This document shows, piece by piece, positions 12,049-32,000 of a DNA stretch of 32,000 bases; within the stretch, counting starts at the first letter, position 1; every line of letters begins with the position of its first letter. Location: the NCBI RefSeq assembly GCF_029232205.1, contig NZ_CP107255.1, positions 180,001-212,000 on the forward strand. Direction: 5' to 3'. Both the position numbers and the translations under genes were made by a program. Origin of the DNA: Candidatus Saccharimonadota bacterium (GTDB lineage: Archaea; Nanohalarchaeota; Nanosalinia; Nanosalinales; Nanosalinaceae). The notes beneath the pieces were generated by a model that made no database searches, was not told the origin of the DNA, and saw only the letters and a list, made by a program, of their open reading frames with translations.

Positions 12049-12072
12049 AATATTTTTATTTGAACTGTGTTT

Positions 12073-13360: not shown

Positions 13361-13399
13361 AGTTTCATAAGTTTAGGTAACAGTTTTTAAGTTAAGCAG

Positions 13400-14398: not shown

Positions 14399-14484
14399 AA
14401 GACTTTTTCCAGGGTTTCAGCGTTTAAATAAAATATTTCTAGGTGGGCCGTTTAAAATACTGAATGCCAAATTCTCACTTATCT

Positions 14485-15546
14485 ATGAAAATCGGCTTCT
14501 TTACCGAGAGCTACTTCCCGAAGTATGATGGAGTGACTTACACTCTGAAGGCCTGGAAGGAGAGGCTTGAGGAAAGAGGCCACGAAGTGTATATTATGTA
14601 TCCTCAGAATCCTGAATATGATCCTGGGGACGGAGAGATACCTGTAAGATCGATTCCAAATCCTTTCTACGAAGGTTACAGAGCACCTTTCCCTGTGAGA
14701 GGTTCTAAACTACCTGATTTTGATATTGTCCACTGTCATGGGCCTATAACGCTGGGATGGTCAGGGTTATTGCAGGCCAAGCTTGAGGACAAGCCTTCGG
14801 TATATACTCATCATACGCCTATTGAGGAGTACTTTATCAATGCTGTAAAACTTCCTCTTCTAGCTAAAATATGTGAGAAGGTTTATCTACCGATTGAGAA
14901 TTTTTTCATGAGCAAATTTGACGTTGTCACGGCCTCGACAAGCAGAATTAACAGGAAGGTTGATTTCACCCGGCTACCTGTAGGCCTTGACATGGAGTTT
15001 TTCCAGCCGCAGGATGAATCTATACTTGATGAGATGGATGTTGAAAGGCCTGTGATCGGCTATTCTGGTAGACTGAGTCTTGAAAAAAATGTTGATAACC
15101 TGGTTTGCTTCGCCGATGAGTTTGATGGCTCTGTTGTTATTGTTGGCGAGGGCCCTCAGGAGAAGAAGTTGAAGGAGATGGCGGGAGATAATGTTTTCTT
15201 CCGTGATTTTCTGGATAGAGAGGATTTGCCAGGTTTTTATTCTGGCCTTGATGCCTTTGTAACTTCTTCTACAGGAGATACTTTGGGTCTTGCGCCTCTG
15301 GAGGCTAATTCTTGCGGTACTCCTGTTGTCGCTGCTGATAATCCTCCTTTTGATGAGACTATTGGCTCCCGGAATGGCGAGCGTTTTGAGCTTGGTGATT
15401 CCGAGTCTTTGTCCCGTGCAATTCATAAAGCACTGAACAATAGCTATGAATGTAGAAGTGCTGTGAAGGATTTTTCGCTTTCCAGCACTATTGAGCAGCT
15501 AGAGGATATTTACGAGGAGCTTGGTGAAAAGTATGGGCAGAGATAA
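14485..15546 (+). CDS. GT4-family glycosyltransferase
   Basis: The ORF is open from 14464, but MKIGFFTESYFPKYDGV (ATG at 14485) is the canonical GT4 N-terminus. C-terminal motif: STGDTLGLAPLEANSCGTPVV. Confidence 0.8.
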   Translation: MKIGFFTESYFPKYDGVTYTLKAWKERLEERGHEVYIMYPQNPEYDPGDGEIPVRSIPNPFYEGYRAPFPVRGSKLPDFDIVHCHGPITLGWSGLLQAKLEDKPSVYTHHTPIEEYFINAVKLPLLAKICEKVYLPIENFFMSKFDVVTASTSRINRKVDFTRLPVGLDMEFFQPQDESILDEMDVERPVIGYSGRLSLEKNVDNLVCFADEFDGSVVIVGEGPQEKKLKEMAGDNVFFRDFLDREDLPGFYSGLDAFVTSSTGDTLGLAPLEANSCGTPVVAADNPPFDETIGSRNGERFELGDSESLSRAIHKALNNSYECRSAVKDFSLSSTIEQLEDIYEELGEKYGQR

Positions 15547-17971: not shown

Positions 17972-18940
17972 CTATTTTTCTATGATCTTTACCTGATAAC
18001 CTGAGCCTACGTACTCCATGTGTTCATCGATTTTTTGCTTAAGTTTTTCTGAGAAATCAGTTGATCTCTTGAGCTTTCCTTTGTGCAGTACTGGAGGGTT
18101 TACTGATCTGGCCTTTGTTGTTACTGTCATGTCTGGGTCTTCGACCTCGGTTTCTATTTCAAACCCGTTTTTCAGTGTTTCAAGTTTATCTTTGATCTCT
18201 TGGTTGTCTGATTCTCTGAGTTTTTCCAGTACTTCGTCATCTGTGCCGAAGAGATCTTCTTCATTCATTATTCCTGTGTCAATGGCTTCACTAAGGGCCT
18301 GTGCGAACATCTTAATTATTACGACTTCCTTTGGATTGGCCCACCATTCTTCGTCTGCTTCCGCGTATTTTTCGGCGAACTCTACAGCTATATCTGGATC
18401 GTCAAGTACAAACATGCCATCTTCTACAGTCAGTGATTCTACGAATTGTTCTACTTTCCAGTCTCCGTAGCTCTTTGAGTCTCTGAGGAAATAGTCAATC
18501 CTGTCTGCGCATAGATCTGGTGCGTCTCTTTCCAGCAGGCCGAAATTTTCTTCGTCGAGAATATATTCGAGGTCGAGGCCGTGTTTTTCCAGTATTTCTG
18601 GTATTTCTGAGTCTTTTACTACTTTTTCGAGGAATCTGTCGTGGTATTCGTGGTCATCGGTGTCGAAAACGAAGTCTGCTGTGTGGGAAAATGCTGTGTG
18701 AGGTACGTCGTGTAGTAGGCCTGCTATCTGTTCTTCTATGCTGGCTCCATGATCTCTCAGTAGAAGAAATACTCCTATGGAGTGTTCGTACCGTGTCATC
18801 GGTTTTTTGTCCATGTAGAATGGTTGTGGCCCGGCTTGATGGACTTTTTTCAGTCTCTGGACTGGTTTGGAGTTGATTAGGTCGATGATTACTTCTTCTT
18901 TGATCTCTTTTTCTCCGTAGACACGGTCGTCAACTTTCAT
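17972..18940 (-). CDS. HD-domain phosphohydrolase (COG1078, SAMHD1/EF1143-like N-terminus)
   Basis: 322 aa. D.VYGEKEI...LINSKPVQRLKKVHQAG...TRYEHSIGV...LLHDVPHTAFSH parallels the SAMHD1-type pattern (QFQRL..I.Q.G, RFEHSLGV, LLHD.GH.PFSH). Confidence 0.8.
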   Translation of the reverse strand: MKVDDRVYGEKEIKEEVIIDLINSKPVQRLKKVHQAGPQPFYMDKKPMTRYEHSIGVFLLLRDHGASIEEQIAGLLHDVPHTAFSHTADFVFDTDDHEYHDRFLEKVVKDSEIPEILEKHGLDLEYILDEENFGLLERDAPDLCADRIDYFLRDSKSYGDWKVEQFVESLTVEDGMFVLDDPDIAVEFAEKYAEADEEWWANPKEVVIIKMFAQALSEAIDTGIMNEEDLFGTDDEVLEKLRESDNQEIKDKLETLKNGFEIETEVEDPDMTVTTKARSVNPPVLHKGKLKRSTDFSEKLKQKIDEHMEYVGSGYQVKIIEK

Positions 18941-18982
18941 GATTTGAAGAAGGAATGAAGAAAGATTTAATCCTTCGGGCCT

Positions 18983-20755
18983 CTAGAGGAATAGGTCTTC
19001 TGCTTTCTTCAGGTATCTTCTGTATTCCTGTATTGCTTCGTCGAATGTGTGTCTGTCGGCCTCTATGTCCATGATTTGGAGGGTTTCCAGTGGGTAGTTG
19101 CTGCCGCCGGATTTCAGGAATTCTAGGTAGTCTTGGTTTCTCCCGTCTTCTACGAGTTTTTCTCTGATGTTGGTTGCTGCGGAGATTCCTGTGGCGTACT
19201 GGTATACGTAGAAGTTGTAGTAGAAGTGTGGTATTCTCATCCATTCTCTTGCGATTCTGTCGTCTACGTCGGCGTTTTCGTAGTATTTTTCTTTGAGGTT
19301 TCTGTATTTTTCGTTGAGCATTCCTGATGTCAGTACTTCTCCATCTTCCACTGCTTCGTGTATCTCTTTCTCGAATTCAGCGAACATTGTCTGTCTGAAC
19401 AGCGTGTTTCTGAAGTTTTCCAGCTGGTAGTCCAGTGCGTGTTTCTTGAGTTCTTCGTTGTCTGTTTGTTTCAGCAGGTATTCTGTGAGGAGTTGTTCGT
19501 TCACTGTGGATGCGATCTCTGCCAGGAAGATTCCGTAGTTGCTGTAGATGTATGGCTGCTCTGATTCCGTGAAGTAGGAGTGCATGGAGTGGCCTAGTTC
19601 GTGGGCCAGTGTGTACATTGACTGGACGTCTTCGTGGAAGTTCATGAGGATGTATGGGTCTGTTCCGTATCCTCCTCCGCTGTAGGCTCCTGATCTTTTG
19701 CCTTTGTTTTCGTATACGTCTACCCATCCTGATTCAAGGCCTTTTCTGGCTGCTTCGACGTATTCTTCTCCCATTGGTTCGAGGGCATTTAGAATGTGTT
19801 CTTTGGCCTCTTCGTAGGTGATTTCTATGTCTGAGTCGGCCATTGGCATGTAGACGTCCCACATTTTCAGTTCGTCTACTCCGAGAACTTTTCTTTTCAG
19901 TTCCTGATGTCGGTGTAGCGGGTCGAAGTTTGAGTTCACGCTTTCTATCAGGTCGTTGAATACCTGTTCTGGTACGTTTTTGCCGTCGAGAGCGGATTCC
20001 AGTGATGAGTTGTAGTCTCTGATTTCTGCGAACTTTGAGTTTGTGCGGGCCTCTTTGTCGAGGCTCTGTGCTACTGTGTTGTCGAAGTCGTTGAATCTGT
20101 CGTAGAACTTGTTGAATACTTCTTCTCTGAGGCCTCTGTCGCTTTCTTTCAGTAGTTTTGTGAAGTTGGACTGTGTTATCTCAACTTTTTCTCCGTCTTT
20201 TTCGATTGAAGGGAATTCCAGATCTGCGTTGGTGAATGTGGAGTAGATGTCGCTGGGGCTGGAGAGTACTTCTCCAAGGTTGGATAGTATCTGTTCTATT
20301 TCCTCTGAGCGGGTGTGGTCTTTTTTGTCTCTTATTTTTTCCAGGAAGTGGCTGTATTCCTGTGTTTCTTCGCTTTCTGCCAGTTTCCGGTATTTTTCAT
20401 CTGAGGCCTCCTGTATTTCTACTTCTACGAAGCTTGTGTCTGATGATATTTTGCTGGAGAGGGAGCTGGCTCTTGCGGCAAGGGCCTGGTATTCTTCTTT
20501 TCTTGTGTCTTCGTCTCTGCGCATTCTGGCGTATGAGGATAGCTGGCTTACCAGGGTTTTTGCTTCCGAGTATTTGTCCATGAATTCGGAGAATTTTTCC
20601 GGCGAGTCTGTTAGCTGGCCTTGATATTTTTTGAGGCCTTCTGCAAGTTCTTTTGCTCTTTCAAAGTCTTTTTCCCATTGTTCTGTTGAGCTGTATACTT
20701 TTTCTACGTTCCATTTGTATTCTTCAGAAATTTCTTCCCGCTCTTTTACTGACAT
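18983..20755 (-). CDS. pepF: oligoendopeptidase F (M3B)
   Basis: 590 aa with HELGHSMH zinc motif and a PepF-like N-terminus (YKWNVEKVYSS...W.KDFE). Confidence 0.9.
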   Translation of the reverse strand: MSVKEREEISEEYKWNVEKVYSSTEQWEKDFERAKELAEGLKKYQGQLTDSPEKFSEFMDKYSEAKTLVSQLSSYARMRRDEDTRKEEYQALAARASSLSSKISSDTSFVEVEIQEASDEKYRKLAESEETQEYSHFLEKIRDKKDHTRSEEIEQILSNLGEVLSSPSDIYSTFTNADLEFPSIEKDGEKVEITQSNFTKLLKESDRGLREEVFNKFYDRFNDFDNTVAQSLDKEARTNSKFAEIRDYNSSLESALDGKNVPEQVFNDLIESVNSNFDPLHRHQELKRKVLGVDELKMWDVYMPMADSDIEITYEEAKEHILNALEPMGEEYVEAARKGLESGWVDVYENKGKRSGAYSGGGYGTDPYILMNFHEDVQSMYTLAHELGHSMHSYFTESEQPYIYSNYGIFLAEIASTVNEQLLTEYLLKQTDNEELKKHALDYQLENFRNTLFRQTMFAEFEKEIHEAVEDGEVLTSGMLNEKYRNLKEKYYENADVDDRIAREWMRIPHFYYNFYVYQYATGISAATNIREKLVEDGRNQDYLEFLKSGGSNYPLETLQIMDIEADRHTFDEAIQEYRRYLKKAEDLFL

Positions 20756-20786
20756 ACATGTGTCTGGGCCTTAGAAAGATAAAAAA

Positions 20787-21311
20787 TCAATGCTTTGAAT
20801 GTTGTTTGAGGAATTTTCTGAGGTTGTCGGATTCGAGTTCCTCGCCGGTTTCTTCCAGTTCTTCGATGTTCCAGTACTTGGCGTCCTGTGCGTCGTCTCC
20901 GGCCTCCAGTTCTCCTTCTACTTTGTCAAGGTCTGCTGTGAATGTGATTACTATGACGTGTTTTCCATCGGGGTGTTTTACCATGAGGTTGTCCAGTAGC
21001 TGGAGGTTTTCCGGTGATATTTTGAGGTTGGTTTCTTCTTCGAGTTCTCTGGCTGCGGCTTTTACTGGTTCTTCGTCTCGTTCGATGAATCCTGCGGGTA
21101 TGCTCCATGAATCTATGTGAGGCCAGTTCCCTCTTTTTATCAGGAGAATTTCGTCGTCTTTTTTGAGAAGTACTCCGGCGGCAGGTTTTGGGTTGCGCCA
21201 GATTACTTTTTCACACGTGTTGCAGTAGAGTCTGCTACGTTCCTCTACTTCTCTGGATCCAAGTTCTGATCCGCATTCTGGGCAGTGTTTAGCGTCTGCT
21301 GCAGCTATCAT
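20787..21311 (-). CDS. NUDIX hydrolase with N-terminal zinc ribbon
   Basis: CPECG...(x)...CNTC zinc ribbon followed by the Nudix box GFIERDEEPVKAAARELEEETNL. ATGA overlap with the upstream gene (21308..21311). Confidence 0.85.
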   Translation of the reverse strand: MIAAADAKHCPECGSELGSREVEERSRLYCNTCEKVIWRNPKPAAGVLLKKDDEILLIKRGNWPHIDSWSIPAGFIERDEEPVKAAARELEEETNLKISPENLQLLDNLMVKHPDGKHVIVITFTADLDKVEGELEAGDDAQDAKYWNIEELEETGEELESDNLRKFLKQHSKH

Positions 21312-22216
21312 TGTTCTGGGTAATCCTCTTTGACGCCTTCTACTTCGAACCAGGGTACTTCTGTCAGCGCCGGGATGTGTGTTTCTATGTGGTGCTCCCA
21401 GACTCCTTGTTCTCCGAAGGCCTCTCCGTGGTCTGATGTAACTACTACTTTTCCGTCAAGTTCCTGTACCAGTTCTGCTACTTGCTCCATGGCGAGCCTC
21501 AGATTTTCTTCGTAGTATTCTTCGAGTGTCTCGCGGGTGCCGTTCCGGCCTACAGATAGAAGGCTTGAAGGATCAAGTTCTACCCACATTCCTAGTTTCA
21601 TTGCGAGGGTGCTGTCCTCTACTACGTCCTCGAATTTTGGCCTTACCACGTCTCCTACTGTAGATAGTATTCCATCCTCTTCATCATTTTTCTCTCCGGC
21701 CTCTTTCGCTTCTTTGAAGCTTTTTCTTATCTTCTCTACTTTGCGGCCTCTACCTTTGGTTATGTAAGGTGCGTGTGGCTGCATGTAGTGGATGATTGTT
21801 CTTTCAGTGTCCTCTGTTCTGTCGAGGTTGTCGAGTACTACTCTGTTCATTCCTTCCGGTGTTACTGTTCCAAGGTCGTCGTCCCAGGCCTCATGCCATA
21901 CATCTACTATGTCTGTTATGTGGTCTTTTCCGTTCCATTCGTAGCCACAGCTTGAGCCCCATTCTATTTCGTTGAGTGGTAGGCCTGCTCCGTTGATGAA
22001 GGGATTGGATGAGAAGTATGTGATGTCGTGTCTTCCGGTGAATGTTTTGGAGGCCCATTCTGGTGTTGAGGATGCCACGCTTTTTCGTTTCTCAAGGTTG
22101 CCTTTGAGGTAGTCGCTGTAGACTTGTTCGAAGAAGTCGTATCTGCACGCGTCTAGGATTATAAGGTAATCCCAGTCCTCTTCCAGAGGTTTCTGATCCT
22201 TCATATAACGACTCAT
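21308..22216 (-). CDS. alkaline-phosphatase-superfamily protein (sulfatase/phosphodiesterase-like core), cytoplasmic
   Basis: 302 aa. YLIILDACRYD near the N-terminus and VVVTSDHGEAFGE near the C-terminus are metal-ligand motifs typical of the AP superfamily. I see no signal peptide and do not recognise the subfamily. Confidence 0.6.
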   Translation of the reverse strand: MSRYMKDQKPLEEDWDYLIILDACRYDFFEQVYSDYLKGNLEKRKSVASSTPEWASKTFTGRHDITYFSSNPFINGAGLPLNEIEWGSSCGYEWNGKDHITDIVDVWHEAWDDDLGTVTPEGMNRVVLDNLDRTEDTERTIIHYMQPHAPYITKGRGRKVEKIRKSFKEAKEAGEKNDEEDGILSTVGDVVRPKFEDVVEDSTLAMKLGMWVELDPSSLLSVGRNGTRETLEEYYEENLRLAMEQVAELVQELDGKVVVTSDHGEAFGEQGVWEHHIETHIPALTEVPWFEVEGVKEDYPEQ

Positions 22217-22267
22217 TTGTCATCTAGCTTTAAGAATAAAAGCCATTTTTCCTATCGCTATCGTTGT

Positions 22268-24928
22268 TTAAAGGACTCTGTTGCCGAATTTTCTGGAGAG
22301 GACTCTTCTGTAGCTATATTCGAGGACTGTGAACACTCCTAGTACTGCTGCTACCTGTATCCAGTGCTGTGGGCCTAGAGGCACTACTCTAAAGACATCC
22401 GATAGCGGTGTGTAAAGGATTGCTAGATGGGTGAGTGATGCAAAGAGGATAGCTGCGATCAGGTACTTATTGTCTGTTAGTTTGAGGCCGTAGTCTCTTC
22501 TGATTACTTGGAACATCATTATTTCGAAGAATGCCAGGGCCATGAACAGCATTGTCTGGGCGTGTGCGAAGTTCTCAATGTTGAGGAAGAATACGGGCAG
22601 CATTACTAGTGCTGCGAGAGGCCCTGTTACCGCAATCATTCCAAGGATCTTTTTGTCGAGGATTGGCTGGTCTGGATCTCTCGGATTTCTCTCCATTATT
22701 CCCTCTACCTTTGGGTCTTCTCCCAGTGCTATTGCTGGCGGGCCGTCGCTTGCGAAGTTTACCCATAGGATCATTAACGCAGTTAGGACTACTGCGTCAC
22801 CGCTTGCAAAGTATTCTGGGTAGAAGAGGCCTCCTATAAGTGTGCCGAGGAATACGAACATTACTTCTCCTGAGTTAGTGGATAGAAGCTGGTTAGTAAC
22901 CTTTCTGATATTATCAAATATTGCTCGGCCTTCTGAAATTGCGTCTCTTATTGTTACGAAGTTGTCGTCCTGTAGTACCATGTCAGAGCTTTTCTTTGCG
23001 ACGTCTGTTCCTCTCTGGCCCATCGCTACACCTACATCCGAGTTTTTGAGGGCCGGCGCATCGTTTACTCCGTCTCCGGTCATTGCTACGTTGTAGCCCT
23101 GGGCCTGTAGTGCTTCAAGTATTCTTACTTTGTGTTCGGGGGAGACTCTTGCAAATATCTCGACTTCCATGACTTTTTCCTGAAGCTCTTCATCACTCAT
23201 TTCCTCTATTTCCGGGCCTCTCATTGCGCCTTCCGGGTTGAATCCGAGTTCCTTTCCGATGGCCTTTGCTGTTTCAATGTTGTCGCCTGTAGCCATTACC
23301 ACTCCGATACCTGCGTTTCTGCAGTCTCCTACTGCTTCTTTTACTTCTTCTCTGGCTGGATCCATCATTCCCTGGAGGCCCAGGAATACCATGTCTGACT
23401 CTATTTCTTCGTCCTCTTCGTCACCTTTGACTTCTTTTCTTGCGAATCCGAGTACTCTTAGTGCGTCTCTGGCGAACTCGTGGTTTTTGTCCTTCAGTTC
23501 CTGTCTTTTTTCGTCGGTCAGCTCTTTTTCCTCGCCGTCTTCAAGTATTCTGTCGCATCTTTCCAGTACTGCTCCTGGAGCACCCTTCATGTAGGCCTGA
23601 TTGTCCTCTGTTACCACAGTCATTTTTTTTCTGTCGGAGGAGAAAGGAATGCTCTTCTTTCTCTTCTTATTGTCTTCAAGGCCTGCTTTTTTGGCTGATA
23701 CAAGTAGCGCGATTTCTGTTGGTTCACCCATGAATCCATCTTCTGTCATCTCCGAGTTGTTGCAGTACATTCCACATTCAAGAAGTGGTTCAAGGTATTC
23801 TGAGTCTGTTTCATGTCCGTCTCTTTTGAATCGGCCTTCTGTAGAAGTTCCTGTGCCTGTTACCTGGAATTCTTCCCCCTGGAAGTACATGGTTTCGACA
23901 GTCATTGCGCCTTCTGTCAGAGTCCCGGTTTTATCTGTTACAATGTAGTTTACGGATCCAAGGGCCTCTACTACAGGAAGTCTCCTGACCAGCGCGTCTT
24001 TCTCCAGTAGTTTTCTGGATCCGAGGGCCAGGGTCAGTGTTACGATTGCAGGAAGTGATTCTGGTATTGCTGCGACGGAAAGGCCTATCGCCAGTATTAG
24101 TATGGTTATTGCGTCTGCTCCTGTGAGTGCAAACTGCAGGAGGGCTACGAATGAAATAATTCCTACTACGAGGGCGCCGATTCTTTTGCCCATTTTGTCA
24201 ACTTCTTCTTCAAAAGGTGTCTGGCCTTTTTCGGCCTCGTCAAGCTCCTCTGCGATGTCGCCTACTTCTGTATCCATTCCTGTGGCGGTGACAACTGCTT
24301 TCCCACGGCCTTTGACCACGTGCGTGTTCATGAAGACCATGTTTTTCCTATCCGCGACTGCGGAGTTTTCCTCTGACTGGCCTGGCTGCTTGGAGATTTC
24401 ATGGCTTTCTCCTGTAAGTGCTGATTCATCTACTTCCAGGGCATCGGCCTCTATCAGTCTTGCATCTGCAGGTACAGCATCTCCCTGCTCCAGAAATACA
24501 ATGTCTCCAGGAACTACATCTTTCGAGCTTATTTCCTTCTTTTTGCCCCCTCTCATTACTGTGGCATTAGGTTTAGCCATTTTTTTCAGGGCCTGTATCG
24601 ATTTCTCAGCCTTGTAATCCTGTATAAATCCGAAGGTTCCGTTTGCAATCAGAATCAAAAATATTACTCCAGCTTCTCTGTACTCTGGGCTGTGTTCTGG
24701 TAGAAGGCCGATTCCAAGTGAGAGAGCGCCTGCTACGAAAAGCAGGTAGATCAGGTTGTCCTGAAACTGGCTGAGAAATATCTTCAGAGGTGATGTGGAG
24801 TCGTCGCTTTCAATTACGTTTTTTCCTTCCTCTTCTATCCGGGATTCTGCTTCTTCCTGTGTCAGGCCTTCTTCCTCAGTTTCTAGATGTGATAGGACTT
24901 CTTTCAGAGGTTTGCTGTGGAGGCCCAT
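22268..24928 (-). CDS. P2-type cation-transporting ATPase (Ca2+/SERCA-PMCA-like)
   Basis: 886 aa with TGES, DKTGTLT, IPESLPAIVTLTLALG (P2A-like M4), MATGDN and TGDGVNDAPALK motifs. Confidence 0.93.
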   Translation of the reverse strand: MGLHSKPLKEVLSHLETEEEGLTQEEAESRIEEEGKNVIESDDSTSPLKIFLSQFQDNLIYLLFVAGALSLGIGLLPEHSPEYREAGVIFLILIANGTFGFIQDYKAEKSIQALKKMAKPNATVMRGGKKKEISSKDVVPGDIVFLEQGDAVPADARLIEADALEVDESALTGESHEISKQPGQSEENSAVADRKNMVFMNTHVVKGRGKAVVTATGMDTEVGDIAEELDEAEKGQTPFEEEVDKMGKRIGALVVGIISFVALLQFALTGADAITILILAIGLSVAAIPESLPAIVTLTLALGSRKLLEKDALVRRLPVVEALGSVNYIVTDKTGTLTEGAMTVETMYFQGEEFQVTGTGTSTEGRFKRDGHETDSEYLEPLLECGMYCNNSEMTEDGFMGEPTEIALLVSAKKAGLEDNKKRKKSIPFSSDRKKMTVVTEDNQAYMKGAPGAVLERCDRILEDGEEKELTDEKRQELKDKNHEFARDALRVLGFARKEVKGDEEDEEIESDMVFLGLQGMMDPAREEVKEAVGDCRNAGIGVVMATGDNIETAKAIGKELGFNPEGAMRGPEIEEMSDEELQEKVMEVEIFARVSPEHKVRILEALQAQGYNVAMTGDGVNDAPALKNSDVGVAMGQRGTDVAKKSSDMVLQDDNFVTIRDAISEGRAIFDNIRKVTNQLLSTNSGEVMFVFLGTLIGGLFYPEYFASGDAVVLTALMILWVNFASDGPPAIALGEDPKVEGIMERNPRDPDQPILDKKILGMIAVTGPLAALVMLPVFFLNIENFAHAQTMLFMALAFFEIMMFQVIRRDYGLKLTDNKYLIAAILFASLTHLAILYTPLSDVFRVVPLGPQHWIQVAAVLGVFTVLEYSYRRVLSRKFGNRVL

Positions 24929-24995: not shown

Positions 24996-25165
24996 AGCCA
25001 TGTGGCGCATGGCTTGTGATGATAAAACTTTCAGAAGTTTTGCGGCCGAAGCAACTATGTTGCTTCTTAAAGCACTTTTTCCGCAGGAAAAGTGCGGCGT
25101 CCGGGATCAGTGACGGATGTGACGATGCGGAAGGGGGTTAGAAAGTCGGTTGCACAACAACCGAC
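24996..25165. other. cluster of four perfect stem-loops in the ATPase/integrase divergent intergenic region
   Basis: H1 24996..25014 agccatg-tggcg-catggct. H2 25048..25066 gaagcaac-tat-gttgcttc. H3 25072..25095 gcactttt-tccgcagg-aaaagtgc. H4 25145..25165 gtcggttg-cacaa-caaccgac. Stems are 7-8 bp with no mismatches. No tRNA cloverleaf could be drawn. Confidence 0.7.
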
Positions 25166-25190
25166 CGACACGCATCGTGAAACAACAACC

Positions 25191-26726
25191 ATGACAAACT
25201 ACGACAGTTCCGACATACACAGAAGACTCGAAACCCTCAAAAACAAAAACTGCGTCTCACAACGCAACGCACAACTTCTCGACGAGTTCGTAGAAGAACT
25301 CCAGGCAAGAGACGGCACAAGCGACAGCAGAACAGTCTGGTACATCTCCAAATTCTCCACAATCCTACAACAATACCTTCGAAAAGACAGGTTCGAGAAA
25401 GACACACGGATCGACAGAACACTGGAACACGACCAGCTGGACGAACTCACCAAGTCCGACCTACTCGCAGTAATCGGCGTGATGAAGAAACTGCCGATGA
25501 ACGACCTCTGGACAGAAAGAGCAGAAACCAAAGACGGAATCCTCACACCACTACAGGCTAAAGAAAGGCTTTCAGAGGAAGCATTCAACAGCCTGGAAAA
25601 GATCGACTCCGACTCCATGAAATACAAGGACTACGAACCCAGCGAAGAAATCTTCAACCAACTCCAAGACTACTCTGCAGCAAAAGTAGAAGACGGCGAC
25701 TACAAGCTTACAGAGTTCGGAGAGAACATCAAAGATGTCAGCGAACCTGAGAAGTATGCAGAGAAAACCATGAACGGGTTCAAGACCGCCTTCAAGATGT
25801 TTCTCAAACTCCGCCACCCCTTGAAGATGGACAGACCACGGAGAGTCAAGAGAATCATCCAGTCAGGAATCCTCAAAGGCAACACAGACGCAGACAGAAA
25901 AACCGAACTACACCTGTTCAGCCCCGAACAAATCTGGAAAATGGTTGAGGCAGCGAGAAACCCTAGAGACGCTCTACTGCCAATCCTATGTCTGGACGCA
26001 GGAGCCAGGAACAAGGAAATCAGGAAAGTAAAGCTCTCCGACATCGAAAAGCAGTCCGAAACATGGATAGTCGAGTTCATCGACTCCAAAAACGGAAAAC
26101 CGCCAAGAGACCTGCCACTGACACACTGTATCGAACAGCTACGGGCATGGCTCGAAAGCCACCCACGGAAAGACGATCCTGACGCTCCACTGTTCGTAAC
26201 ACTTAACGACAAGGGCGACGGAGAGAAAGGCAGCGAACTCAAGAAAGAAAACATCAACAAGATCCTGAAACGGTTAGCCAAGAGAGCAGACGTAGTAGAC
26301 AATCCAGAAACTGTCAAAGTCTACGATTTCAGGCACTCATCCGCCACATTCAGAGGCACAGAGCAGGACTGGGGAGTATCCAGGATGATGTACTGGTATG
26401 CGTGGAAAAAGCCAGACCGGGCGAAAACCTACTGCCACGAGGATAACAAGCGGATGACAGAAGCTATCTTGAAAGACAAAGGAATCAAGACCGAGGACAA
26501 CAGCAATAACTCGATGCAGATGCAGGAATGCCCACGCTGCGAGGAAAAACGACCCGCCAACGCCGAATACTGCCCAAAATGCTCTCTACCTTTGGACAGC
26601 GAGACAGCCATGAGAGACGCAGACCTCAAGAAAGCAGCCAAAATCCTCGTAGACATGAAACTTGACGAAAAAATCGAAGACGAAGAACTCAAAGGACGCC
26701 TACAACGAGTCAGAGAAGGAATCTAA
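25191..26726 (+). CDS. tyrosine recombinase / phage-type integrase with C-terminal zinc ribbon
   Basis: Catalytic-domain motifs LDAGARNKEI (Arg I), VYDFRHSSATF (HxxR-type box) and a late Tyr (RAKTYCH). C-terminal CPRC-x11-CPKC ribbon. The ORF is open from a GTG at 25092, but that start lies inside stem-loop H3 and the leader crosses H4, so I prefer the ATG at 25191 (MTNYDSS...). Confidence 0.85.
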   Translation: MTNYDSSDIHRRLETLKNKNCVSQRNAQLLDEFVEELQARDGTSDSRTVWYISKFSTILQQYLRKDRFEKDTRIDRTLEHDQLDELTKSDLLAVIGVMKKLPMNDLWTERAETKDGILTPLQAKERLSEEAFNSLEKIDSDSMKYKDYEPSEEIFNQLQDYSAAKVEDGDYKLTEFGENIKDVSEPEKYAEKTMNGFKTAFKMFLKLRHPLKMDRPRRVKRIIQSGILKGNTDADRKTELHLFSPEQIWKMVEAARNPRDALLPILCLDAGARNKEIRKVKLSDIEKQSETWIVEFIDSKNGKPPRDLPLTHCIEQLRAWLESHPRKDDPDAPLFVTLNDKGDGEKGSELKKENINKILKRLAKRADVVDNPETVKVYDFRHSSATFRGTEQDWGVSRMMYWYAWKKPDRAKTYCHEDNKRMTEAILKDKGIKTEDNSNNSMQMQECPRCEEKRPANAEYCPKCSLPLDSETAMRDADLKKAAKILVDMKLDEKIEDEELKGRLQRVREGI

Positions 26727-27114: not shown

Positions 27115-27318
27115 ATGGGTTCAACCAGAAAAATAGAATACGAGAAACTCGTTTCCACCAGACACCAAGAAAAAAGTAGCAGAACGGTCGACATCACCGC
27201 AGCTTACCAGGGCAGACACGAAGAAGTAAGTTGGAAAACGGCGAACCTAATACCTGCCGAAGCTCCAGACCTAATAGAACTACGGTTTCCCGTAAACTGC
27301 TTGGTGCTTCAGCAATAG
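27115..27318 (+). CDS. hypothetical ORF (weak; may be non-coding)
   Basis: 67-aa ORF with element-like composition. It has no recognisable family and no well-spaced promoter, and it contains two ACCTAAT motif copies. Confidence 0.25.
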   Translation: MGSTRKIEYEKLVSTRHQEKSSRTVDITAAYQGRHEEVSWKTANLIPAEAPDLIELRFPVNCLVLQQ

Positions 27319-27385: not shown

Positions 27386-27526
27386 ATGAGCAAAAAATTA
27401 GCTTTCGGTCTGGCAGTCCTCTTGAGCCTTGGATTTACTTCTATGGCTATGGTCCAGCCTCAGCAAGGACAGATGAATCAGTCGATGATGCAGGAGCATA
27501 TGCAACAGATGCAGCAAATGCAGTAG
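27386..27526 (+). CDS. small secreted Met/Gln-rich peptide (possible Cu(I)-binding 'Mets-motif' protein), terminated by a TAG that is followed by 21 more in-frame Met-rich codons
   Basis: MSKKLAFGLAVLLSLGFTSMAM (signal-peptide-like) followed by VQPQQGQMNQSMMQEHMQQMQQMQ*. A GGAG-containing purine tract lies about 8 nt upstream of the ATG at 27386. After the TAG at 27524..27526 the frame continues RMNRSGMEQGMQDGMMGGVQI to a second TAG at 27590..27592. Confidence 0.5.
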   Translation: MSKKLAFGLAVLLSLGFTSMAMVQPQQGQMNQSMMQEHMQQMQQMQ

Positions 27527-27609
27527 AGAATGAATCGATCCGGAATGGAACAAGGAATGCAAGACGGCATGATGGGAGGAGTGCAGATATAGCCACGAAA
27601 ATCACTTAA

Positions 27610-27679: not shown

Positions 27680-27943
27680 CTACCCATCGAATTCATCCAA
27701 TATTCTTTCCCCATTTTTTGTAAGTCTCAGGTATTTTGGCTTTCCTTCTGGGTTGATGTGTTCTAGGTAGTCTTCTTCTCGAAGTAGTTCGATATGTTTT
27801 CTTGCGGCAACATGGCTCATGTCAAGTTTATCTGCTATTTCACTTAGATATATTCCGTCCTCCTGTTTTTCCTTTACTATCTGGATTATCTCTCTGCGTG
27901 TGTCTGCGCCTTTTGAAAAGTAGAAAAGTACGGATTCATCCAT
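27680..27943 (-). CDS. winged-helix (ArsR/TrmB-like) transcriptional regulator
   Basis: 87 aa. TRREIIQIV......GIYLSEIADKLDMSHVAARKHIELLREEDYLE....EGKPKYLRLT shows the HTH-plus-wing pattern. It lies 4 nt downstream of the small membrane protein gene. Confidence 0.8.
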   Translation of the reverse strand: MDESVLFYFSKGADTRREIIQIVKEKQEDGIYLSEIADKLDMSHVAARKHIELLREEDYLEHINPEGKPKYLRLTKNGERILDEFDG

Positions 27944-27947
27944 ACCT

Positions 27948-28253
27948 TTATTCCACCTTTTCCCTGATCTTCTTCATCGATGTGTAGAGGCCATAAGAAG
28001 CATAGCTCAGGCTTGCAGCTCCAGCGACCACACCTAATTCAAGAAGAAGATTGTAAATCGGCTCTGGAATTCTAAGAAATACTTGGAGGACTTTCAGCCA
28101 TTCGTGCATTCCAAGACCTATAGCGGCAAGTAGGAAGAATACCCAGTACTTTCCTCTATTGGTTTCTTCCGAGAGTCGGTATGTATAATACACAGCTATT
28201 CCGAATAGAACTGAGGAAAGAATCACCAGAACAAGGCTGACAGTATCTACCAT
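27948..28253 (-). CDS. small 3-TM membrane protein, co-transcribed with the wHTH regulator
   Basis: 101 aa with three hydrophobic segments (VSLVLVILSSVLFGIAVYY, WVFFLLAAIGLGM, LLLELGVVAGAASLSYA). A leaderless-type TATA sits 26-31 nt upstream. Confidence 0.6.
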   Translation of the reverse strand: MVDTVSLVLVILSSVLFGIAVYYTYRLSEETNRGKYWVFFLLAAIGLGMHEWLKVLQVFLRIPEPIYNLLLELGVVAGAASLSYASYGLYTSMKKIREKVE

Positions 28254-28276
28254 AATCCTATTTTGAGAGGTTATCT

Positions 28277-28290
28277 ACAATAAAGTTACC
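28277..28290 (-). promoter_or_regulatory. GGTAAC-TTTATT promoter core for the 28253 operon
   Basis: The reverse complement of 28277..28290 is ggtaactttattgt. The TATA-like tttatt is 26-31 nt from the ATG at 28253. Confidence 0.45.
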
Positions 28291-28313
28291 TGTATGCATA
28301 CCTAATGAAACCC

Positions 28314-28331
28314 TAATGTAACCTTTTAATC
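28314..28331 (+). promoter_or_regulatory. TAATGTAACC + TTTTAATC promoter core for the 28355 gene
   Basis: The exact 10-mer taatgtaacc (28314..28323) abuts ttttaatc (28324..28331), which lies 24-31 nt upstream of the ATG at 28355. Confidence 0.5.
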
Positions 28332-28354
28332 TCTGGAAACTTCAGATAATTTAC

Positions 28355-28861
28355 ATGCATAGAGGTCTGATCAGCGGATTTAAGTCTTCTTTCGACTCTT
28401 TTTGGGCTGCAGTAGCAGTAATCGCTGTCTCAAGTATGTTTTATCTGGTTCTTACCTTGAGTAGTTTTCCAAATTATTCACTGGAGATGTTAAATGCAAG
28501 CATCCTGTATTTGGATGAGGCTTTCTTAGCTCTCAACTGGAATGTCTTCAATACCGCTGGATACGCCGGAATTTTTCTCTCTGTAGTTTACTCAGTGTTT
28601 TCAGGTGTTCTTTTAGTAAACCTTTACCAATCTCTAAAAATCAATGGCATATCTAATATCAAGAAAAGCGGAGGAATGTTCCCAGCCTTCTTGGCCGGAG
28701 GATGTGCAGGTTGCGGAGCAGGAATTCTAGGTTTCTTTGGACTTCTAGGCATAGCCTCAGCATTACCTTTCCAGGGAAACGGTCTGAAAGTCGGGAGCAT
28801 CGCTCTGATGGCGGTAGCAATATCAAGTATCGGCAATCCCGAAAAATGCTCGATAGACTGA
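28355..28861 (+). CDS. 4-TM membrane protein with intramembrane CxxC (GGCAGCGAG)
   Basis: 168 aa with about four hydrophobic segments. The only cysteines are C-A-G-C inside the glycine-rich third segment (FLAGGCAGCGAGILGFFGLLG) and one C-terminal Cys (PEKCSID). I do not recognise the family. Confidence 0.65.
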   Translation: MHRGLISGFKSSFDSFWAAVAVIAVSSMFYLVLTLSSFPNYSLEMLNASILYLDEAFLALNWNVFNTAGYAGIFLSVVYSVFSGVLLVNLYQSLKINGISNIKKSGGMFPAFLAGGCAGCGAGILGFFGLLGIASALPFQGNGLKVGSIALMAVAISSIGNPEKCSID

Positions 28862-28884
28862 GTTAGGAATTTTCACAAAAATAG

Positions 28885-28914
28885 GTAATGTAACCCTATT
28901 GTAACTTATAAAAA
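28885..28914 (+). promoter_or_regulatory. TAATGTAACC ... TGTAAC + TTATAAAAAA promoter core for the DoxX operon
   Basis: The same 10-mer taatgtaacc is at 28885..28894 and a second tgtaac at 28899..28904 abuts ttataaaaaa (28905..28914), 25-34 nt upstream of the GTG at 28939. An inverted ggttaca lies at 28930..28936. Confidence 0.5.
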
Positions 28915-28938
28915 AGACAAAGTTCCATAGGTTACACA

Positions 28939-29358
28939 GTGAGTTTATACCGCGATTTTCAGGACTTCTTAGCACAGTATCCGCTAGACCCCTACACCGT
29001 TTTCCGGACAGGATTAGGCCTAATGATACTTCTATCTGGAATCCATAAACTGGTCGATCCTGTAGTCTGGTCCAGCTACATAGCTCCAACATTCGCCGAC
29101 TTATTGAATCAGATAGATCTCCAGAACTCAGTTTTCATGCAGATCAACGGTGTTTTTGAAATCATTTTCGGCACCAGTATTCTACTCGACAAATACACTA
29201 CAGCAGCGGCAGGGGTCGTCACACTGTCTTTAGCGGGGATTATAGTGAACCTTGGACTGGCAGGAACAGGATATCTCGATATAATAATCAGGGACTTAGG
29301 ACTGCTACTGCTTTCAACAGGAGTAACTTTACAGGCAGTCCGGAGGGAGAAAAAATGA
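28939..29358 (+). CDS. DoxX-family membrane protein
   Basis: 139 aa with 4 TM helices. FRTGLGLMILLSGIHKL and the overall pattern resemble DoxX/DoxD-like proteins. GTG start, and an ATGA overlap with the next gene. Confidence 0.72.
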   Translation: MSLYRDFQDFLAQYPLDPYTVFRTGLGLMILLSGIHKLVDPVVWSSYIAPTFADLLNQIDLQNSVFMQINGVFEIIFGTSILLDKYTTAAAGVVTLSLAGIIVNLGLAGTGYLDIIIRDLGLLLLSTGVTLQAVRREKK

Positions 29359-30452
29359 CCGAAGAAATACAGATTAATCTTGATGTAAGACATGCGATAA
29401 TTGGAGTATTCATACTTGGAATCTTAACCGGCTTCCTGGCAGGATTAGTTACATCAACTCAGCTTTCAGGAGCCGAAAATGTTGCACAACAGCCTTCACA
29501 GGAAAATAATAATCCTTCTCCGCGGCCTACCGGTCAGGCTGATTCAGAAGTAGATATTAGCTTCGAAACAGAAGGGGAGCCTGTGATCGGTCAGGAGGAT
29601 GCACCGGTCACGATCGCTTACTGGGGAGACTACCAGTGTCCTTTCTGTAAACGATTCGAGCAGAGGACATTCCCTCAGCTGAAAAACAACTACATTTCAG
29701 AAGGAAAAGTAAGGTTCGTATTCAAAGACTTCCAGTTCCTCGGTCCGGATTCAAAAACCGCTGGAATAGCCTCTGAATGCGTCTGGAAACAGGTCGGAAA
29801 TTCTAACCCTGATGCCTTCTGGAACTGGCACGCCTCGATGTTCGACAACCAAGACGGAGAAAACAGCGGCTGGGGTAACAAGCAGGACATAACTTCGATG
29901 ACGCAACAAGTTTCAGGAGTAAATGCAGACCAACTTTCAAGCTGCATGGAGAACAACCAGCAGAAGTTCCAAGACGAAATGGATAAAGACAAAAGTGAAG
30001 GACAGTCTGTAGGAGTCACAGGAACACCAGGATTCGTAATATACAAGACAGGTTCAAACTCTGGACAGCAGATTACCGGTGCACAGCCATTCAGCCGGTT
30101 TGAATCAGTTATCAGCCAAGTTCAAAACTCTGATCCAGGAACCGAGACAACAGGAGAAAACGAACAGGTTGACAAGACCATACAAGTCTCAGGGACAGAG
30201 TACAGTTTCTCACCTTCCACAATAAAAGTCGGAAAAGGCCAGACTGTGGAAATAGAATTTAGCAACACAGGCAGTATTCCCCACGACATGAAGATTCCAA
30301 GCCTTGGAACAGGTTCAAAAGTTATACAGCCAGGTCAAACAGACTCCTTCACATTTACAGCACCAAAATCAGGAACCTTCCCTATAAGCTTCGAATGCAG
30401 CCTCCCAGGTCACGCAGCGAACGGGATGAAAGGACAGCTAAAGACAGGTTGA
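29355..30452 (+). CDS. membrane-anchored DsbA-like thiol:disulfide oxidoreductase fused to a C-terminal type-1-copper cupredoxin domain
   Basis: N-terminal TM anchor (AIIGVFILGILTGFLAGLV). Thioredoxin-fold DsbA/BdbD-like domain with WGDYQCPFCKRF active site and cis-Pro loop VGVTGTPGFVI. After a linker comes a cupredoxin with candidate ligands IPHDM ... FECSLPGHAANGM (His, Cys, His, Met). Confidence 0.85.
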   Translation: MTEEIQINLDVRHAIIGVFILGILTGFLAGLVTSTQLSGAENVAQQPSQENNNPSPRPTGQADSEVDISFETEGEPVIGQEDAPVTIAYWGDYQCPFCKRFEQRTFPQLKNNYISEGKVRFVFKDFQFLGPDSKTAGIASECVWKQVGNSNPDAFWNWHASMFDNQDGENSGWGNKQDITSMTQQVSGVNADQLSSCMENNQQKFQDEMDKDKSEGQSVGVTGTPGFVIYKTGSNSGQQITGAQPFSRFESVISQVQNSDPGTETTGENEQVDKTIQVSGTEYSFSPSTIKVGKGQTVEIEFSNTGSIPHDMKIPSLGTGSKVIQPGQTDSFTFTAPKSGTFPISFECSLPGHAANGMKGQLKTG

Positions 30453-30458
30453 GAGATC

Positions 30459-31046
30459 GTGGGGGAATTTGAATGTGACAAGTGCGATAGAGGCTTCAGT
30501 TCCGAGGAGGCGTTGGAGCAGCATAAACAGGACTACGATCACAGCAAGCTGAAGGAATGCTCGAAATGCGGTGAAAAATTCAGATCCAAGGAAAAATACA
30601 GTGAGCACAAGAAAACGCATTGGGGTCCGGTACGAAGACACATCTTCGCTGACCATTATGTTTTAGGAGGACTAGCTCTGATAGGCCTTGTAATCGCGCT
30701 GGGACTGGGCTTAAACGCACTTCCTTCTGGCGGCTCCAGTCAAGAATCCATACCTGAAGATGTAGGCCAGACTGTCAGTATAACCGGAGGAGATTTCTAC
30801 TTCAATCCTTCCACGAGCCGGATAAACGATACAGGCAAGATAAGAGTGAGGTTTACCAATCAGGGAGGTGTTAGTCACAATCTCAGACTGACCGGTATCG
30901 GGAAGGGGACAAGTGTCATCCCGCCAGGCCAATCTGAAGCATTCACCTTCAACGCTTCAAAAGACGGGGAAACACCTATAGCGTTTGAATGCACGCTACC
31001 AGGTCATGCCGAAAGAGGCATGGTAGGAAGATTCACTTCAACATAG
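30459..31046 (+). CDS. two N-terminal classical C2H2 zinc fingers + single TM + extracytoplasmic cupredoxin domain
   Basis: ZF1 CDKC-x12-H-x5-H (FECDKCDRGFSSEEALEQHKQDYDH). ZF2 CSKC-x12-H-x3-H (KECSKCGEKFRSKEKYSEHKKTH). A basic stretch is followed by a TM helix (VLGGLALIGLVIALGLGL). The cupredoxin carries VSHNL ... FECTLPGHAERGM and is a paralog of the C-terminal domain of the previous gene. GTG start. Confidence 0.8.
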   Translation: MGEFECDKCDRGFSSEEALEQHKQDYDHSKLKECSKCGEKFRSKEKYSEHKKTHWGPVRRHIFADHYVLGGLALIGLVIALGLGLNALPSGGSSQESIPEDVGQTVSITGGDFYFNPSTSRINDTGKIRVRFTNQGGVSHNLRLTGIGKGTSVIPPGQSEAFTFNASKDGETPIAFECTLPGHAERGMVGRFTST

Positions 31047-31059
31047 AGGAGAACAAAAC

Positions 31060-31671
31060 ATGGAAGAATGCAAATACTGTGATAAAGAATTCGATAAAAA
31101 GAGGAGAAAGCTTCAGCACGAATTGAAAGAACACGAGGGAGAAATGTCTAGCCATGACAGAGATGGGAAAAAGAGAGAATTAAGCAAGTTGAGAGAGAAG
31201 GATAAGACGGCGAAACAGAAACGGAATAGGAAGATAATCTACAGCGGGATTGGTCTAGTATTGCTAGCTGGCCTGGTTTTCGGAGGCTACCAGGTTTCCC
31301 AATACGCTGATTCTCTACAGCCTGAGAAAGATGCCGATAAAGGAATAGGAACTCCTATTCACTGGCACGCAAATTACCAACTCACAGTCTGCGGAGAAAA
31401 CCAGATCCTCCGAGGAGGACCTACTAGAGCACATACACACGGTCAGAGCCAGTTCCATCTTGAAGGAGTGAGAACAAGCGAGGAACAGGCAACTTTAGAT
31501 GGGATTGTAGATAGTTTGGGCGGCCAACTGGAAAATAATTCAGTGATGGGTCAAACCAGCTGCAACGGAGAACCGGCTGAACTCACAGTTAAGGCGAATG
31601 GCCAGGAACTTGAAAATCCGCTGACTTACATCCCTAGGGATGGCGATAACATAGTAATCAGGTTAGAATGA
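31060..31671 (+). CDS. N-terminal C2H2 zinc finger + single TM + extracytoplasmic His/Cys-rich domain
   Basis: CKYC-x12-H-x4-H (ECKYCDKEFDKKRRKLQHELKEH), a long Lys/Arg-rich linker and a TM helix (IYSGIGLVLLAGLVFGGY). The outside domain has IHWHANYQLTVCGE, RAHTHGQSQFHLEG, a second Cys (TSCNGEP) and a tail LTVKANGQEL..P..YIPRDGDNIVIRLE. Confidence 0.7.
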   Translation: MEECKYCDKEFDKKRRKLQHELKEHEGEMSSHDRDGKKRELSKLREKDKTAKQKRNRKIIYSGIGLVLLAGLVFGGYQVSQYADSLQPEKDADKGIGTPIHWHANYQLTVCGENQILRGGPTRAHTHGQSQFHLEGVRTSEEQATLDGIVDSLGGQLENNSVMGQTSCNGEPAELTVKANGQELENPLTYIPRDGDNIVIRLE

Positions 31672-32000
31672 TAGAGAAACTTCTCAACTTCCTCTGGAAA
31701 TACATCGCAGGACCTATAATAGCAGATGCAAAAAACGCCGAAACCGCTGTATGGAACGGAGTGACCGCTCAAACTGGCTACAACCTTTTCAACACCGTAA
31801 CATGGGCGGTACTTGCAGCGTTCTTCGGCTACTTTATTTACAGGGAATTCGACCGGAGGGATATCAGTTTCACTCCGGAAACAGTTGTAGCCTCGGTACC
31901 TTTCATCCTGATTGGCGGGATGCTCCGATTTATCGAAGACGCCGGGGTTCTTGTATTCTTCCTCAGGCCTTTCCTGATAACCCCGATAATCTACTTCGTG
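31668..32000 (+). CDS. DUF63-like archaeal membrane protein (5' part; runs off the window)
   Basis: ATGA overlap with the upstream stop. The frame is open for 111 codons to the window end: MIEKLLNFLWKYIAGPIIADA...YNLFNTVTWAVLAAFFGYFIY...VVASVPFILIGGMLRFIEDAGVL...LRPFLITPIIYF resembles the DUF63 pattern as I recall it. Confidence 0.5.
   Translation, partial: MIEKLLNFLWKYIAGPIIADAKNAETAVWNGVTAQTGYNLFNTVTWAVLAAFFGYFIYREFDRRDISFTPETVVASVPFILIGGMLRFIEDAGVLVFFLRPFLITPIIYFV

Follow-up and report, generated by a model that had tools for sequence, protein, structure and literature searches.

A conserved, uncharacterised extracytoplasmic copper/thiol-redox gene set in nanohaloarchaea that combines known folds in new architectures

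We analysed a 32,000-nucleotide stretch of DNA (positions 180,001 to 212,000 of contig NZ_CP107255.1, hereafter the window) from Candidatus Nanohalovita haloferacivicina, a DPANN nanohaloarchaeon that lives on Haloferax. The right end of the window encodes a winged helix-turn-helix (wHTH) regulator, a protein with three transmembrane (TM) segments (3TM), a four-TM protein with a CxxC motif inside the membrane (CxxC-4TM), a DoxX-family protein, a DsbA-cupredoxin fusion, two proteins in which C2H2 zinc fingers and a TM helix precede an exported domain, and a DUF63 protein. These genes form an extracytoplasmic copper/thiol-redox set that is conserved and as yet uncharacterised and in which known folds occur in new architectures, and they are the left arm of a larger metal-resistance island. 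We tentatively propose, with confidence that falls a little short of even, that the set provides an inducible, horizontally mobile surface copper/thiol-redox defence that is specific to Nanohaloarchaeota and works like the Scs and CopI systems. The cluster had been delineated in an earlier note made from the sequence alone. All of its open reading frames (ORFs) were found where they had been placed, the ATGA overlaps (29355 and 31668) and the 6- and 13-nt gaps were as given there, and the domain calls for wHTH, DoxX, DsbA-cupredoxin, C2H2-TM-cupredoxin and DUF63 were borne out by profile searches above the respective cutoffs (Table 1).

The conservation of the gene set was examined at eight independent loci that encode a DsbA-cupredoxin fusion, which were collected by exact-protein look-ups and a genome scan and include that of the window (individual loci are given below by L numbers). 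A DoxX gene was present at all eight, directly upstream in six, and the wHTH and 3TM genes occurred as a pair at six of the eight. Five loci encode a C2H2-TM-cupredoxin and the remaining three a plain or lipobox-bearing cupredoxin. MauE and CxxC-4TM were each found at four loci (with a MauE score of 86.6 bits in L022), the C2H2-TM protein with a His-rich ectodomain (ZnFHis) at three, DUF63 at two to three, and an integrase within 8 kb at three. The core gene order, the translational coupling and a shared operator were kept down to 44% protein identity. The genes are thus found together in at least seven other nanohaloarchaeal genomes or loci, which answers the question raised in the earlier note of whether they ever co-occur outside this genome. 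No characterised operon with this gene set was found in full-text literature searches, in agreement with what the note had expected, nor any paper that joins DsbA, haloarchaea and disulfide bond formation. The broader statement that no known pathway combines these parts agrees with these searches for the set as a whole, but does not hold for its pairings, as DoxX with DsbA, MauE with a thioredoxin-like protein and DsbA-like proteins in copper tolerance are all known.

The DsbA-cupredoxin fusion matched Pfam models for both of its parts, with Thioredoxin_4 at 93.2 bits (cutoff 23.2) and DSBA at 51.9 (25.6) for the first, and Cupredoxin_1 at 45.9 (27) and Copper-bind at 32.7 (21.2) for the second. 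We aligned 13 such fusions, all from nanohaloarchaea, whose identity to the window protein ranged from 44 to 91%. Invariant in all 13 were the active site C95-P-F-C98, the cis-proline T224-P225 and the type-1 copper ligands H310, C348, H353 and M358; the linker that joins the two domains was long and variable. The copper ligands align with those of the solved N-terminal type-1 copper domain of NirK (6tfd; HD...CSLPGHxxxGM), so that the His/Cys/His/Met geometry on which the earlier note had staked its cupredoxin assignment is present. Judged by fold model and ligand set, both the fusion and the finger protein that follows it are predicted to carry type-1 (blue) copper domains. A search of the PDB identified BdbD as the nearest solved DsbA (2e-28 over query residues 6-161), with the structures of ScsC as more distant matches (3e-7 to 4e-4). 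The models for DsbB and VKOR had no match among the cluster proteins, the rest of the genome not having been searched, and DsbD_TM matched no cluster protein either. The DoxX gene is translationally coupled to the fusion gene by an ATGA overlap, and its product scored 14.8 bits against the MauE model (cutoff 27). The genome of this organism lacks respiratory complexes (PMC10266531), and its cupredoxins are therefore without a respiratory partner.

The two genes downstream of the fusion encode proteins with N-terminal C2H2 fingers. The pattern C-x2-C-x3-F-x5-L-x2-H-x3-5-H was found in 18 N-terminal fingers across the loci, and both the finger and the copper ligands of the 2xC2H2-TM-cupredoxin are conserved in four orthologues. 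Ahead of the TM helices the segments are Lys- and Arg-rich, and the C-terminal domains are acidic, which fits with fingers inside the cell and ectodomains outside. The finger region of the 31060-31671 protein was modelled by AlphaFold2 (AF2) as a helix, with a predicted local distance difference test (pLDDT) score of ~77. The tethering of two exported domains to classical C2H2 fingers, as described in the earlier note, is thus supported by a conserved pattern in both proteins and by a zf-C2H2 model match in the 30459-31046 protein only. The head of a C2H2 finger and one TM helix is more widespread, as it heads at least five ectodomains in nanohaloarchaea: cupredoxin, the beta-grasp His-rich domain, DsbA, a TlpA-like-DUF3105 domain and one of unknown kind. 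The finger sequences of these heads are nearly alike (C.KC.K.F.SE.A.EQH.EDYDH), and further examples are encoded at L014:6097-6894(-), L012:15202-15762 and L027:5084-6211. At L023, the cupredoxin that follows the DsbA-cupredoxin (9214-9642) has a lipobox (LAGC) in place of the finger and TM anchor. At L024, the cupredoxin that follows the finger-cupredoxin (9823-10308) also carries an LAGC lipobox, and an AliA/AliB gene adjoins CopA there. Lipid anchoring and finger anchoring may be interchangeable.

The ectodomain of ZnFHis, which the earlier note had called a His/Cys domain, proved to be a His-rich domain with neither a Pfam model nor a solved relative in the PDB. The His and Cys residues themselves stood up to alignment: HWH, C111, H125-T-H127, H133, E135 and C168 are invariant in ZnFHis, and the consensus of the wider domain is DHWHAxYxIxxCGE...HTHGDGxIHIHP...C...VNG...DGDxIxI, with its H, W, C, H, H, H and C invariant or nearly so. 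AF2 modelled the C-terminal part of the ectodomain with a pLDDT of 83-97. The best Foldseek matches were the beta domain of transcobalamin and ThiS/SAMP, all of them weak (E >= 7e-3), and a beta-grasp fold is predicted. An exhaustive HMMER search placed the domain in 127 representative clusters. It is fused to cupredoxin in P0154, P0190 and the Chloroflexota proteins of L016 and L018, to an N-terminal GerE/LuxR HTH in the bacterial proteins P0170 and P0183, and elsewhere to VanZ or to C2H2 fingers. Fusions with cupredoxin occur in other bacteria besides Chloroflexota. In Nanohalobium (L013), the His-rich protein is encoded between DsbA and a multicopper oxidase, with cupredoxins next in order. 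In L007, L010 and L022, its neighbouring genes encode PadR, DUF305, Met-rich proteins and CopB-type ATPases, the last with a CPH motif and a His-rich N-terminus. ZnFHis had no relative on plasmids. These fusions and neighbours elsewhere tie the His-rich domain to copper independently of the window, and suggest that it is able to perform the sensing in a regulator that spans the membrane.

The CxxC-4TM protein has no relative in Pfam, NCBIfam or the PDB. Its AF2 model, built from four close homologues, reached a pLDDT of 40.9 and was unusable for a fold search. In alignments of the family, GCAxCGAG in TM3 and a Cys ~4 residues from the C-terminus are invariant. The earlier note had assigned the intramembrane CxxC to the outer face of the membrane; by a crude hydropathy and charge analysis, the pair lies in the cytoplasmic half of TM3 and the third Cys in the cytoplasmic tail, so that all three lean to the cytoplasm and an outer-face position is not clear. 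While a word-based search gave close relatives only, tblastn located the family on 28 haloarchaeal megaplasmids. On these the gene is annotated as 'hypothetical' and as a rule overlaps or diverges from a DsbA gene, as in L151, L152 and L154; in nanohaloarchaea, it directly follows C2H2-TM-DsbA (L014) or DsbA-cupredoxin (L149). A Haloterrigena plasmid encodes it in the vicinity of DsbA, a multicopper oxidase and a copper-binding (copper-storage-like) protein of the four-helix-bundle kind. Genes for thioredoxin (trxA) and TrxB-like proteins are frequent neighbours of the haloarchaeal DsbA and CxxC-4TM pair. From this analysis we infer that CxxC-4TM is a dedicated membrane partner of DsbA, one that more probably feeds electrons outward in the manner of DsbD/ScsB. 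The megaplasmid loci are L151:6974-8262, L152:6959-8097, L153:9210-13072 and L154:9180-10426, with further CxxC-4TM paralogues close by.

Upstream of the redox genes, the wHTH and 3TM genes are divergent from that of CxxC-4TM. They are kept together in L006, L022, L023, L024 and L150, and the 3TM protein, which is always paired with the wHTH, has an invariant HEWLK motif. The window contains four TAWTGWAAC half-sites as compared with 0.73 expected by chance, and these form two 20-bp double direct repeats, at 28303-28322 and 28886-28905, and are found at no other place in it. Copy 1 lies directly upstream of the TATA-like box of the CxxC-4TM gene within the divergent promoter region, and copy 2 (TAATGTAACCCTATTGTAAC) abuts the TATA box (TTATAAAA) ~26 nt upstream of the DoxX start; the TATA-like boxes of both genes are ~25-30 nt upstream of the start codons. 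The same element was found in L006, and it occupies the same position upstream of DoxX in L006, L022, L024 and L023 despite differences in the order and orientation of the units. It is present in five lineages and nowhere else in the nanohaloarchaeal loci examined. The operator copies together with the invariable wHTH/3TM pair define a small regulon, with the wHTH as the presumed operator-binding protein. A metagenome scan with the 17-mer operator returned chance matches only, none of them encoding cluster proteins; one was a telomere-like tandem repeat.

The earlier note had placed the cluster in a compositionally foreign island beside an integrase module. The integrase is real (Table 1), and the island stands in substance by comparison with L026, a locus from a different lineage, but not on compositional grounds. 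The GC content of the cluster is 0.41-0.48 as compared with 0.41-0.49 elsewhere in the window, and the z of its tetranucleotide distance (~2.3) is similar to that of another window block (2.1). The integrase of L026 is 97.8% and its DsbA-cupredoxin 99.7% identical to the window counterparts, whereas the flanking glycosyltransferase, DUF2070 and FeS_assembly_P proteins are only 41-66% identical. Such near-identity next to divergent flanks indicates that the island moved recently between lineages. DNA homology to L026 (97.7%) starts at window position 25089, which is the start of the integrase, and the integrase marks the left edge of the shared mobile island. No relative of the integrase was found in IMG/VR viral contigs, the window contains no tRNA gene, and no genomic islands were predicted in the published genome (PMC10266531).

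The continuation of the island beyond the window was read from L027, which, like L002, is 99.96-99.97% identical to the window and which covers positions 29548-32000 and what follows. DUF63 is followed by an ORF of 61 aa and then by an ArsR/SmtB regulator (84.8 bits, cutoff 55), MerA and further genes (L027:3293-8834). MerA lies ~1.5 kb past the window end, scored 506.9 bits (cutoff 454) and has a C-terminal CC pair. Also encoded are a fourth C2H2-TM protein with a TlpA/ResA-like ectodomain (WCPSC) and DUF3105, and a TM protein of 170 aa in which an LLCCSP motif is combined with a C-terminal Cys. A Cd/Zn-type P1B ATPase closes this mercury/cadmium arm, in which no MerT or MerP homologue was found.

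Table 1. Coordinates of the features in the window, with the basis of each assignment (scores in bits, followed by the model cutoff where given).
Feature	Position	Strand	Basis
Tyrosine recombinase/integrase, 544 aa, XerA-like, C-terminal zinc ribbon	25092-26726	+	Phage_integrase 47.5 bits
~180-bp conserved stretch	27137-27313	.	DNA identity to L006/L026
Met/Gln-rich secreted peptide, 46 aa (tentative)	27386-27526	+	ORF; JGI gene call in L001
wHTH regulator, 87 aa, no Cys	27680-27943	-	HTH_20 29.9 bits vs 27; HTH_11 also above cutoff
3-TM membrane protein, 101 aa	27948-28253	-	ORF; no family match above cutoff
Operator-like element, copy 1 (TAATGAAACCCTAATGTAAC)	28303-28322	+	Two 11-bp direct repeats
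CxxC-4TM protein, GGCAGCG motif	28355-28861	+	No Pfam/NCBIfam match
Operator-like element, copy 2 (TAATGTAACCCTATTGTAAC), with abutting TATA box (TTATAAAA)	28886-28913	+	Half-site count
DoxX-family membrane protein, 139 aa, no Cys	28939-29358	+	PF07681 29.8 bits vs 23.6
DsbA-cupredoxin: N-terminal TM anchor, DsbA domain, variable linker, predicted type-1 cupredoxin domain	29355-30452	+	Pfam
2xC2H2-TM-cupredoxin	30459-31046	+	zf-C2H2 28.1 vs 25.2; zf-C2H2_4 29.6 vs 27; Copper-bind 26.6 vs 21.2
C2H2-TM-His-rich ectodomain (ZnFHis)	31060-31671	+	Finger by pattern only, no Pfam match
DUF63 (PF01889), 5' part of gene	31668-32000 (window end)	+	72.5 bits vs 25

Several smaller or neighbouring features were also examined. 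The full DUF63 gene, present in L002 and L027, encodes 287 aa and overlaps the preceding gene by ATGA; the protein from L002 scored 128.5 bits (cutoff 25). This family is now known as AliA/AliB, which functions in archaeal lipoprotein lipidation and has 'uncharacterized metal binding protein' genes as frequent neighbours (PMC12462473). The match to the family, which the earlier note had already made, stands, whereas the link of the gene to the system is inconsistent across genomes; no lipobox protein is encoded in the window island. The ~180-bp stretch between the integrase and regulator genes travels with the cluster, with counterparts at L006:6400-6578 and L026:~6072-6258, and its 89% identity to L006 exceeds the 81-85% of neighbouring coding DNA. 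As an RNA candidate it was rejected, with no Rfam match, no folding signal and no covariation. Its copies share no intact ORF, and its possible identities are a site of recombination, the remnant of a gene or a short ORF. The 46-aa Met/Gln-rich ORF begins with a signal-peptide-like N-terminus followed by MxxM-type repeats and has no homologue in the other loci; longer Met-rich membrane proteins adjoin CopB in L010 and L022. The ORF ends at a TAG, beyond which the Met-rich reading goes on in frame for 21 codons (27386-27592). A reading of this TAG as pyrrolysine was dropped, the organism being a nanohaloarchaeon.

Left of the island, a 7-kb block between FeS_assembly_P and the integrase (17972-24928) encodes an HD-domain protein, an M3 oligopeptidase, a NUDIX protein, a sulfatase-like protein and a P2-type cation ATPase. 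L026 lacks it at the corresponding site (3600-4030), which makes it a second variable segment beside the island. At 11041-15546, upstream of DUF2070, two LPG_synthase_TM paralogues in tandem are encoded together with two group-1 glycosyltransferases, in what looks like a surface-lipid/glycan cluster unrelated to the copper/thiol genes.

How might these parts work together? The earlier note had offered two roles, a disulfide-formation relay with copper centres as electron acceptors and a copper-sensing and detoxification module, and it is the second that is better supported by gene context, with CopA, CopB, multicopper oxidase, TRASH, MerA and a Cd/Zn ATPase among the neighbours. Related loci encode CopB-type ATPases, CopA with a CPC motif and an HMA domain, a TRASH regulator, an ArsP/YHS permease, PadR and DUF305. 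There is precedent as well, since ScsC functions in copper tolerance (PMC5524982, PMC8900818, PMC10907172), as does the periplasmic cupredoxin-like CopI (PMC13308877). We propose that the wHTH would bind the operator at the BRE/TATA position and repress transcription until metal or thiol stress is sensed, possibly via its 3TM partner or the finger-tethered ectodomains. DsbA would then be serviced on its oxidising side by DoxX/MauE and on its reducing side by CxxC-4TM, itself fed by cytoplasmic thioredoxin, and would keep the disulfides of surface proteins correct under copper stress, as ScsC/ScsB and DsbC/DsbD do in bacteria. At the surface, copper binding and the oxidation of Cu(I) in the manner of CopI or CueO would fall to the two cupredoxins and the His-rich domain, while P1B ATPases, which are encoded nearby in related genomes, would export cytoplasmic copper. 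The least certain step concerns the cytoplasmic C2H2 fingers, which may act as an output, by signalling or DNA binding, or as a docking module that these proteins have in common.

The proposed defence resembles several known systems in part. Like Scs of Salmonella, Proteus and Caulobacter, it would combine an extracytoplasmic DsbA-fold CxxC protein and a Cys-bearing membrane partner in copper tolerance. Unlike Scs, it includes no DsbD/ScsB-family domain, CxxC-4TM being of an unrelated and unmodelled family; ScsC is not fused to a cupredoxin, whereas the present system has an archaeal host, DoxX/MauE partners and a DsbA nearer to BdbD. CopI, too, is a cupredoxin that belongs to copper resistance and not to respiration, and for both cupredoxin domains the CopI models (NF051440 and NF047895) rank at or near the top of the cupredoxin-type NCBIfam matches, over the C-terminal ligand loop (last ~40 residues). 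The window proteins, however, are without the His/Met-rich regions of CopI, and their copper domain is fused to DsbA or tethered to fingers. MauD is the thioredoxin-like exported partner of MauE in disulfide formation. In both aboE/aboF and MauE/MauD, a DoxX/MauE-family protein implicated in disulfide formation is encoded beside a DsbA- or thioredoxin-like exported protein; unlike the genes studied here, these pairs serve one peptide or enzyme substrate, have no copper domains and are not known to act in metal stress. Among solved structures, the DsbA domain is closest to BdbD of Bacillus subtilis, but BdbD has as its partner BdbC, a DsbB homologue, and no such homologue is encoded in the cluster. 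In transmembrane one-component regulators of the ToxR/CadC type and zinc-binding anti-sigma factors of the ZAS type, a single TM helix joins an extracytoplasmic sensor to a module on the cytoplasmic side that binds DNA or protein. The finger proteins share this layout, and the His-rich ectodomain of ZnFHis is joined to a GerE HTH in bacterial proteins; the difference is that here the module is a classical C2H2 finger which also heads catalytic ectodomains (DsbA and TlpA-like).

A number of observations speak against the Scs/CopI-like defence. The DsbA domain is far nearer to the oxidase BdbD than to ScsC, and the Scs-like model leaves unexplained why DsbA is obligatorily fused to a one-electron copper centre. 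The cupredoxins score far under the CopI cutoffs (39.5 and 30.2 as compared with 280). The wHTH has neither a Cys nor a His motif for metal sensing, and its score against the ArsR/SmtB metalloregulator model NF033788 was 19.2 bits (cutoff 55). The topology of CxxC-4TM comes from a crude hydropathy analysis, its AF2 model having the low score given above. Lastly, the DoxX-DsbA-cupredoxin-MauE core of L148 has housekeeping genes around it and, on the visible side, none for metals.

Some of these points would be accommodated if the genes served housekeeping oxidative folding without quinones, DsbB or VKOR, a reading that we regard as doubtful but worth serious consideration. DsbA would oxidise secreted proteins, and the fused type-1 copper would re-oxidise DsbA and pass electrons on to the finger-anchored cupredoxin, and from there to O2 (via a multicopper oxidase where present) or to DoxX/MauE. 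Favouring it are the strictness of the DsbA-cupredoxin fusion, seen in 13 protein clusters without a change in any redox residue, the relation to BdbD, the housekeeping surroundings of the L148 copy, the lack of a respiratory chain in the organism and the gene order in Nanohalobium, where DsbA, ZnFHis, a multicopper oxidase and cupredoxins follow one another. DoxX and DsbA are paired as aboE/aboF in clusters for disulfide-containing lasso peptides (PMC6409603), a bona fide MauE follows in four loci, and the DoxX-like GigT of the Cupriavidus copper/gold response is a further precedent for a copper-based relay. Yet the long and variable linker speaks against a fixed electron-transfer geometry, the oxidation of a CxxC dithiol by a type-1 copper centre has no known precedent, and the closest relative (L006) has a second, plain DsbA. 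A dedicated operator and a mobile, integrase-linked metal island would also be unusual for a housekeeping pathway. We consider it unlikely that the relay extends across the membrane as a quinone-independent thiol/blue-copper chain, running from thioredoxin via CxxC-4TM, the CPFC site, the fused copper and the finger cupredoxin to an external acceptor, be it O2, Cu(II) or the halocyanins or respiratory chain of the host cell. If true, it would provide disulfides without DsbB/VKOR, or an extracellular sink for fermentative reducing power, in a non-respiring DPANN symbiont.

The neighbouring MerA raises another reading, in which the genes form a MerP/MerT-like relay for thiophilic metals, Hg(II) or Cu(I), from the CxxC of the DsbA or TlpA-like proteins to the intramembrane Cys pair and cytoplasmic Cys of the 4-TM proteins and then to MerA or efflux ATPases. 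MerA, which has a CC pair, is accompanied not by MerT or MerP but by the TlpA-like (WCPSC) and LLCCSP proteins, and CxxC-4TM has the same three-Cys layout as the latter. Regardless, such a relay is improbable: the operator is absent in front of the mer genes, cupredoxins have no known part in mercury handling, the haloarchaeal DsbA and CxxC-4TM pair occurs without MerA, and copper import would be harmful. The variability of the accessory genes (three of eight loci for ZnFHis, four for CxxC-4TM and two to three for DUF63) would be expected if they were accidental neighbours on a variable island with no common function. We give this very little credence, as the core order, coupling and shared operator are conserved down to the lowest identities noted above.

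The surface copper/thiol-redox defence that we favour would have consequences for the biology of these organisms. Obligate, non-respiring symbionts with genomes of ~1 Mb still keep and exchange a surface blue-copper/thiol-oxidoreductase module and, if it serves copper defence, this would be the first envelope copper/thiol-redox system described for DPANN archaea. Its new parts include a His-rich ectodomain family, of predicted beta-grasp fold, tied to copper proteins in both bacteria and archaea; classical C2H2 fingers as the predicted cytoplasmic heads of single-pass surface redox proteins; and a defined operator. The CxxC-4TM family, conserved beside DsbA in halophilic archaea, is a candidate for the unknown partner of archaeal DsbA. 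If instead the copper centre re-oxidises DsbA, the fusion would represent a new, quinone-free route to disulfide bonds.

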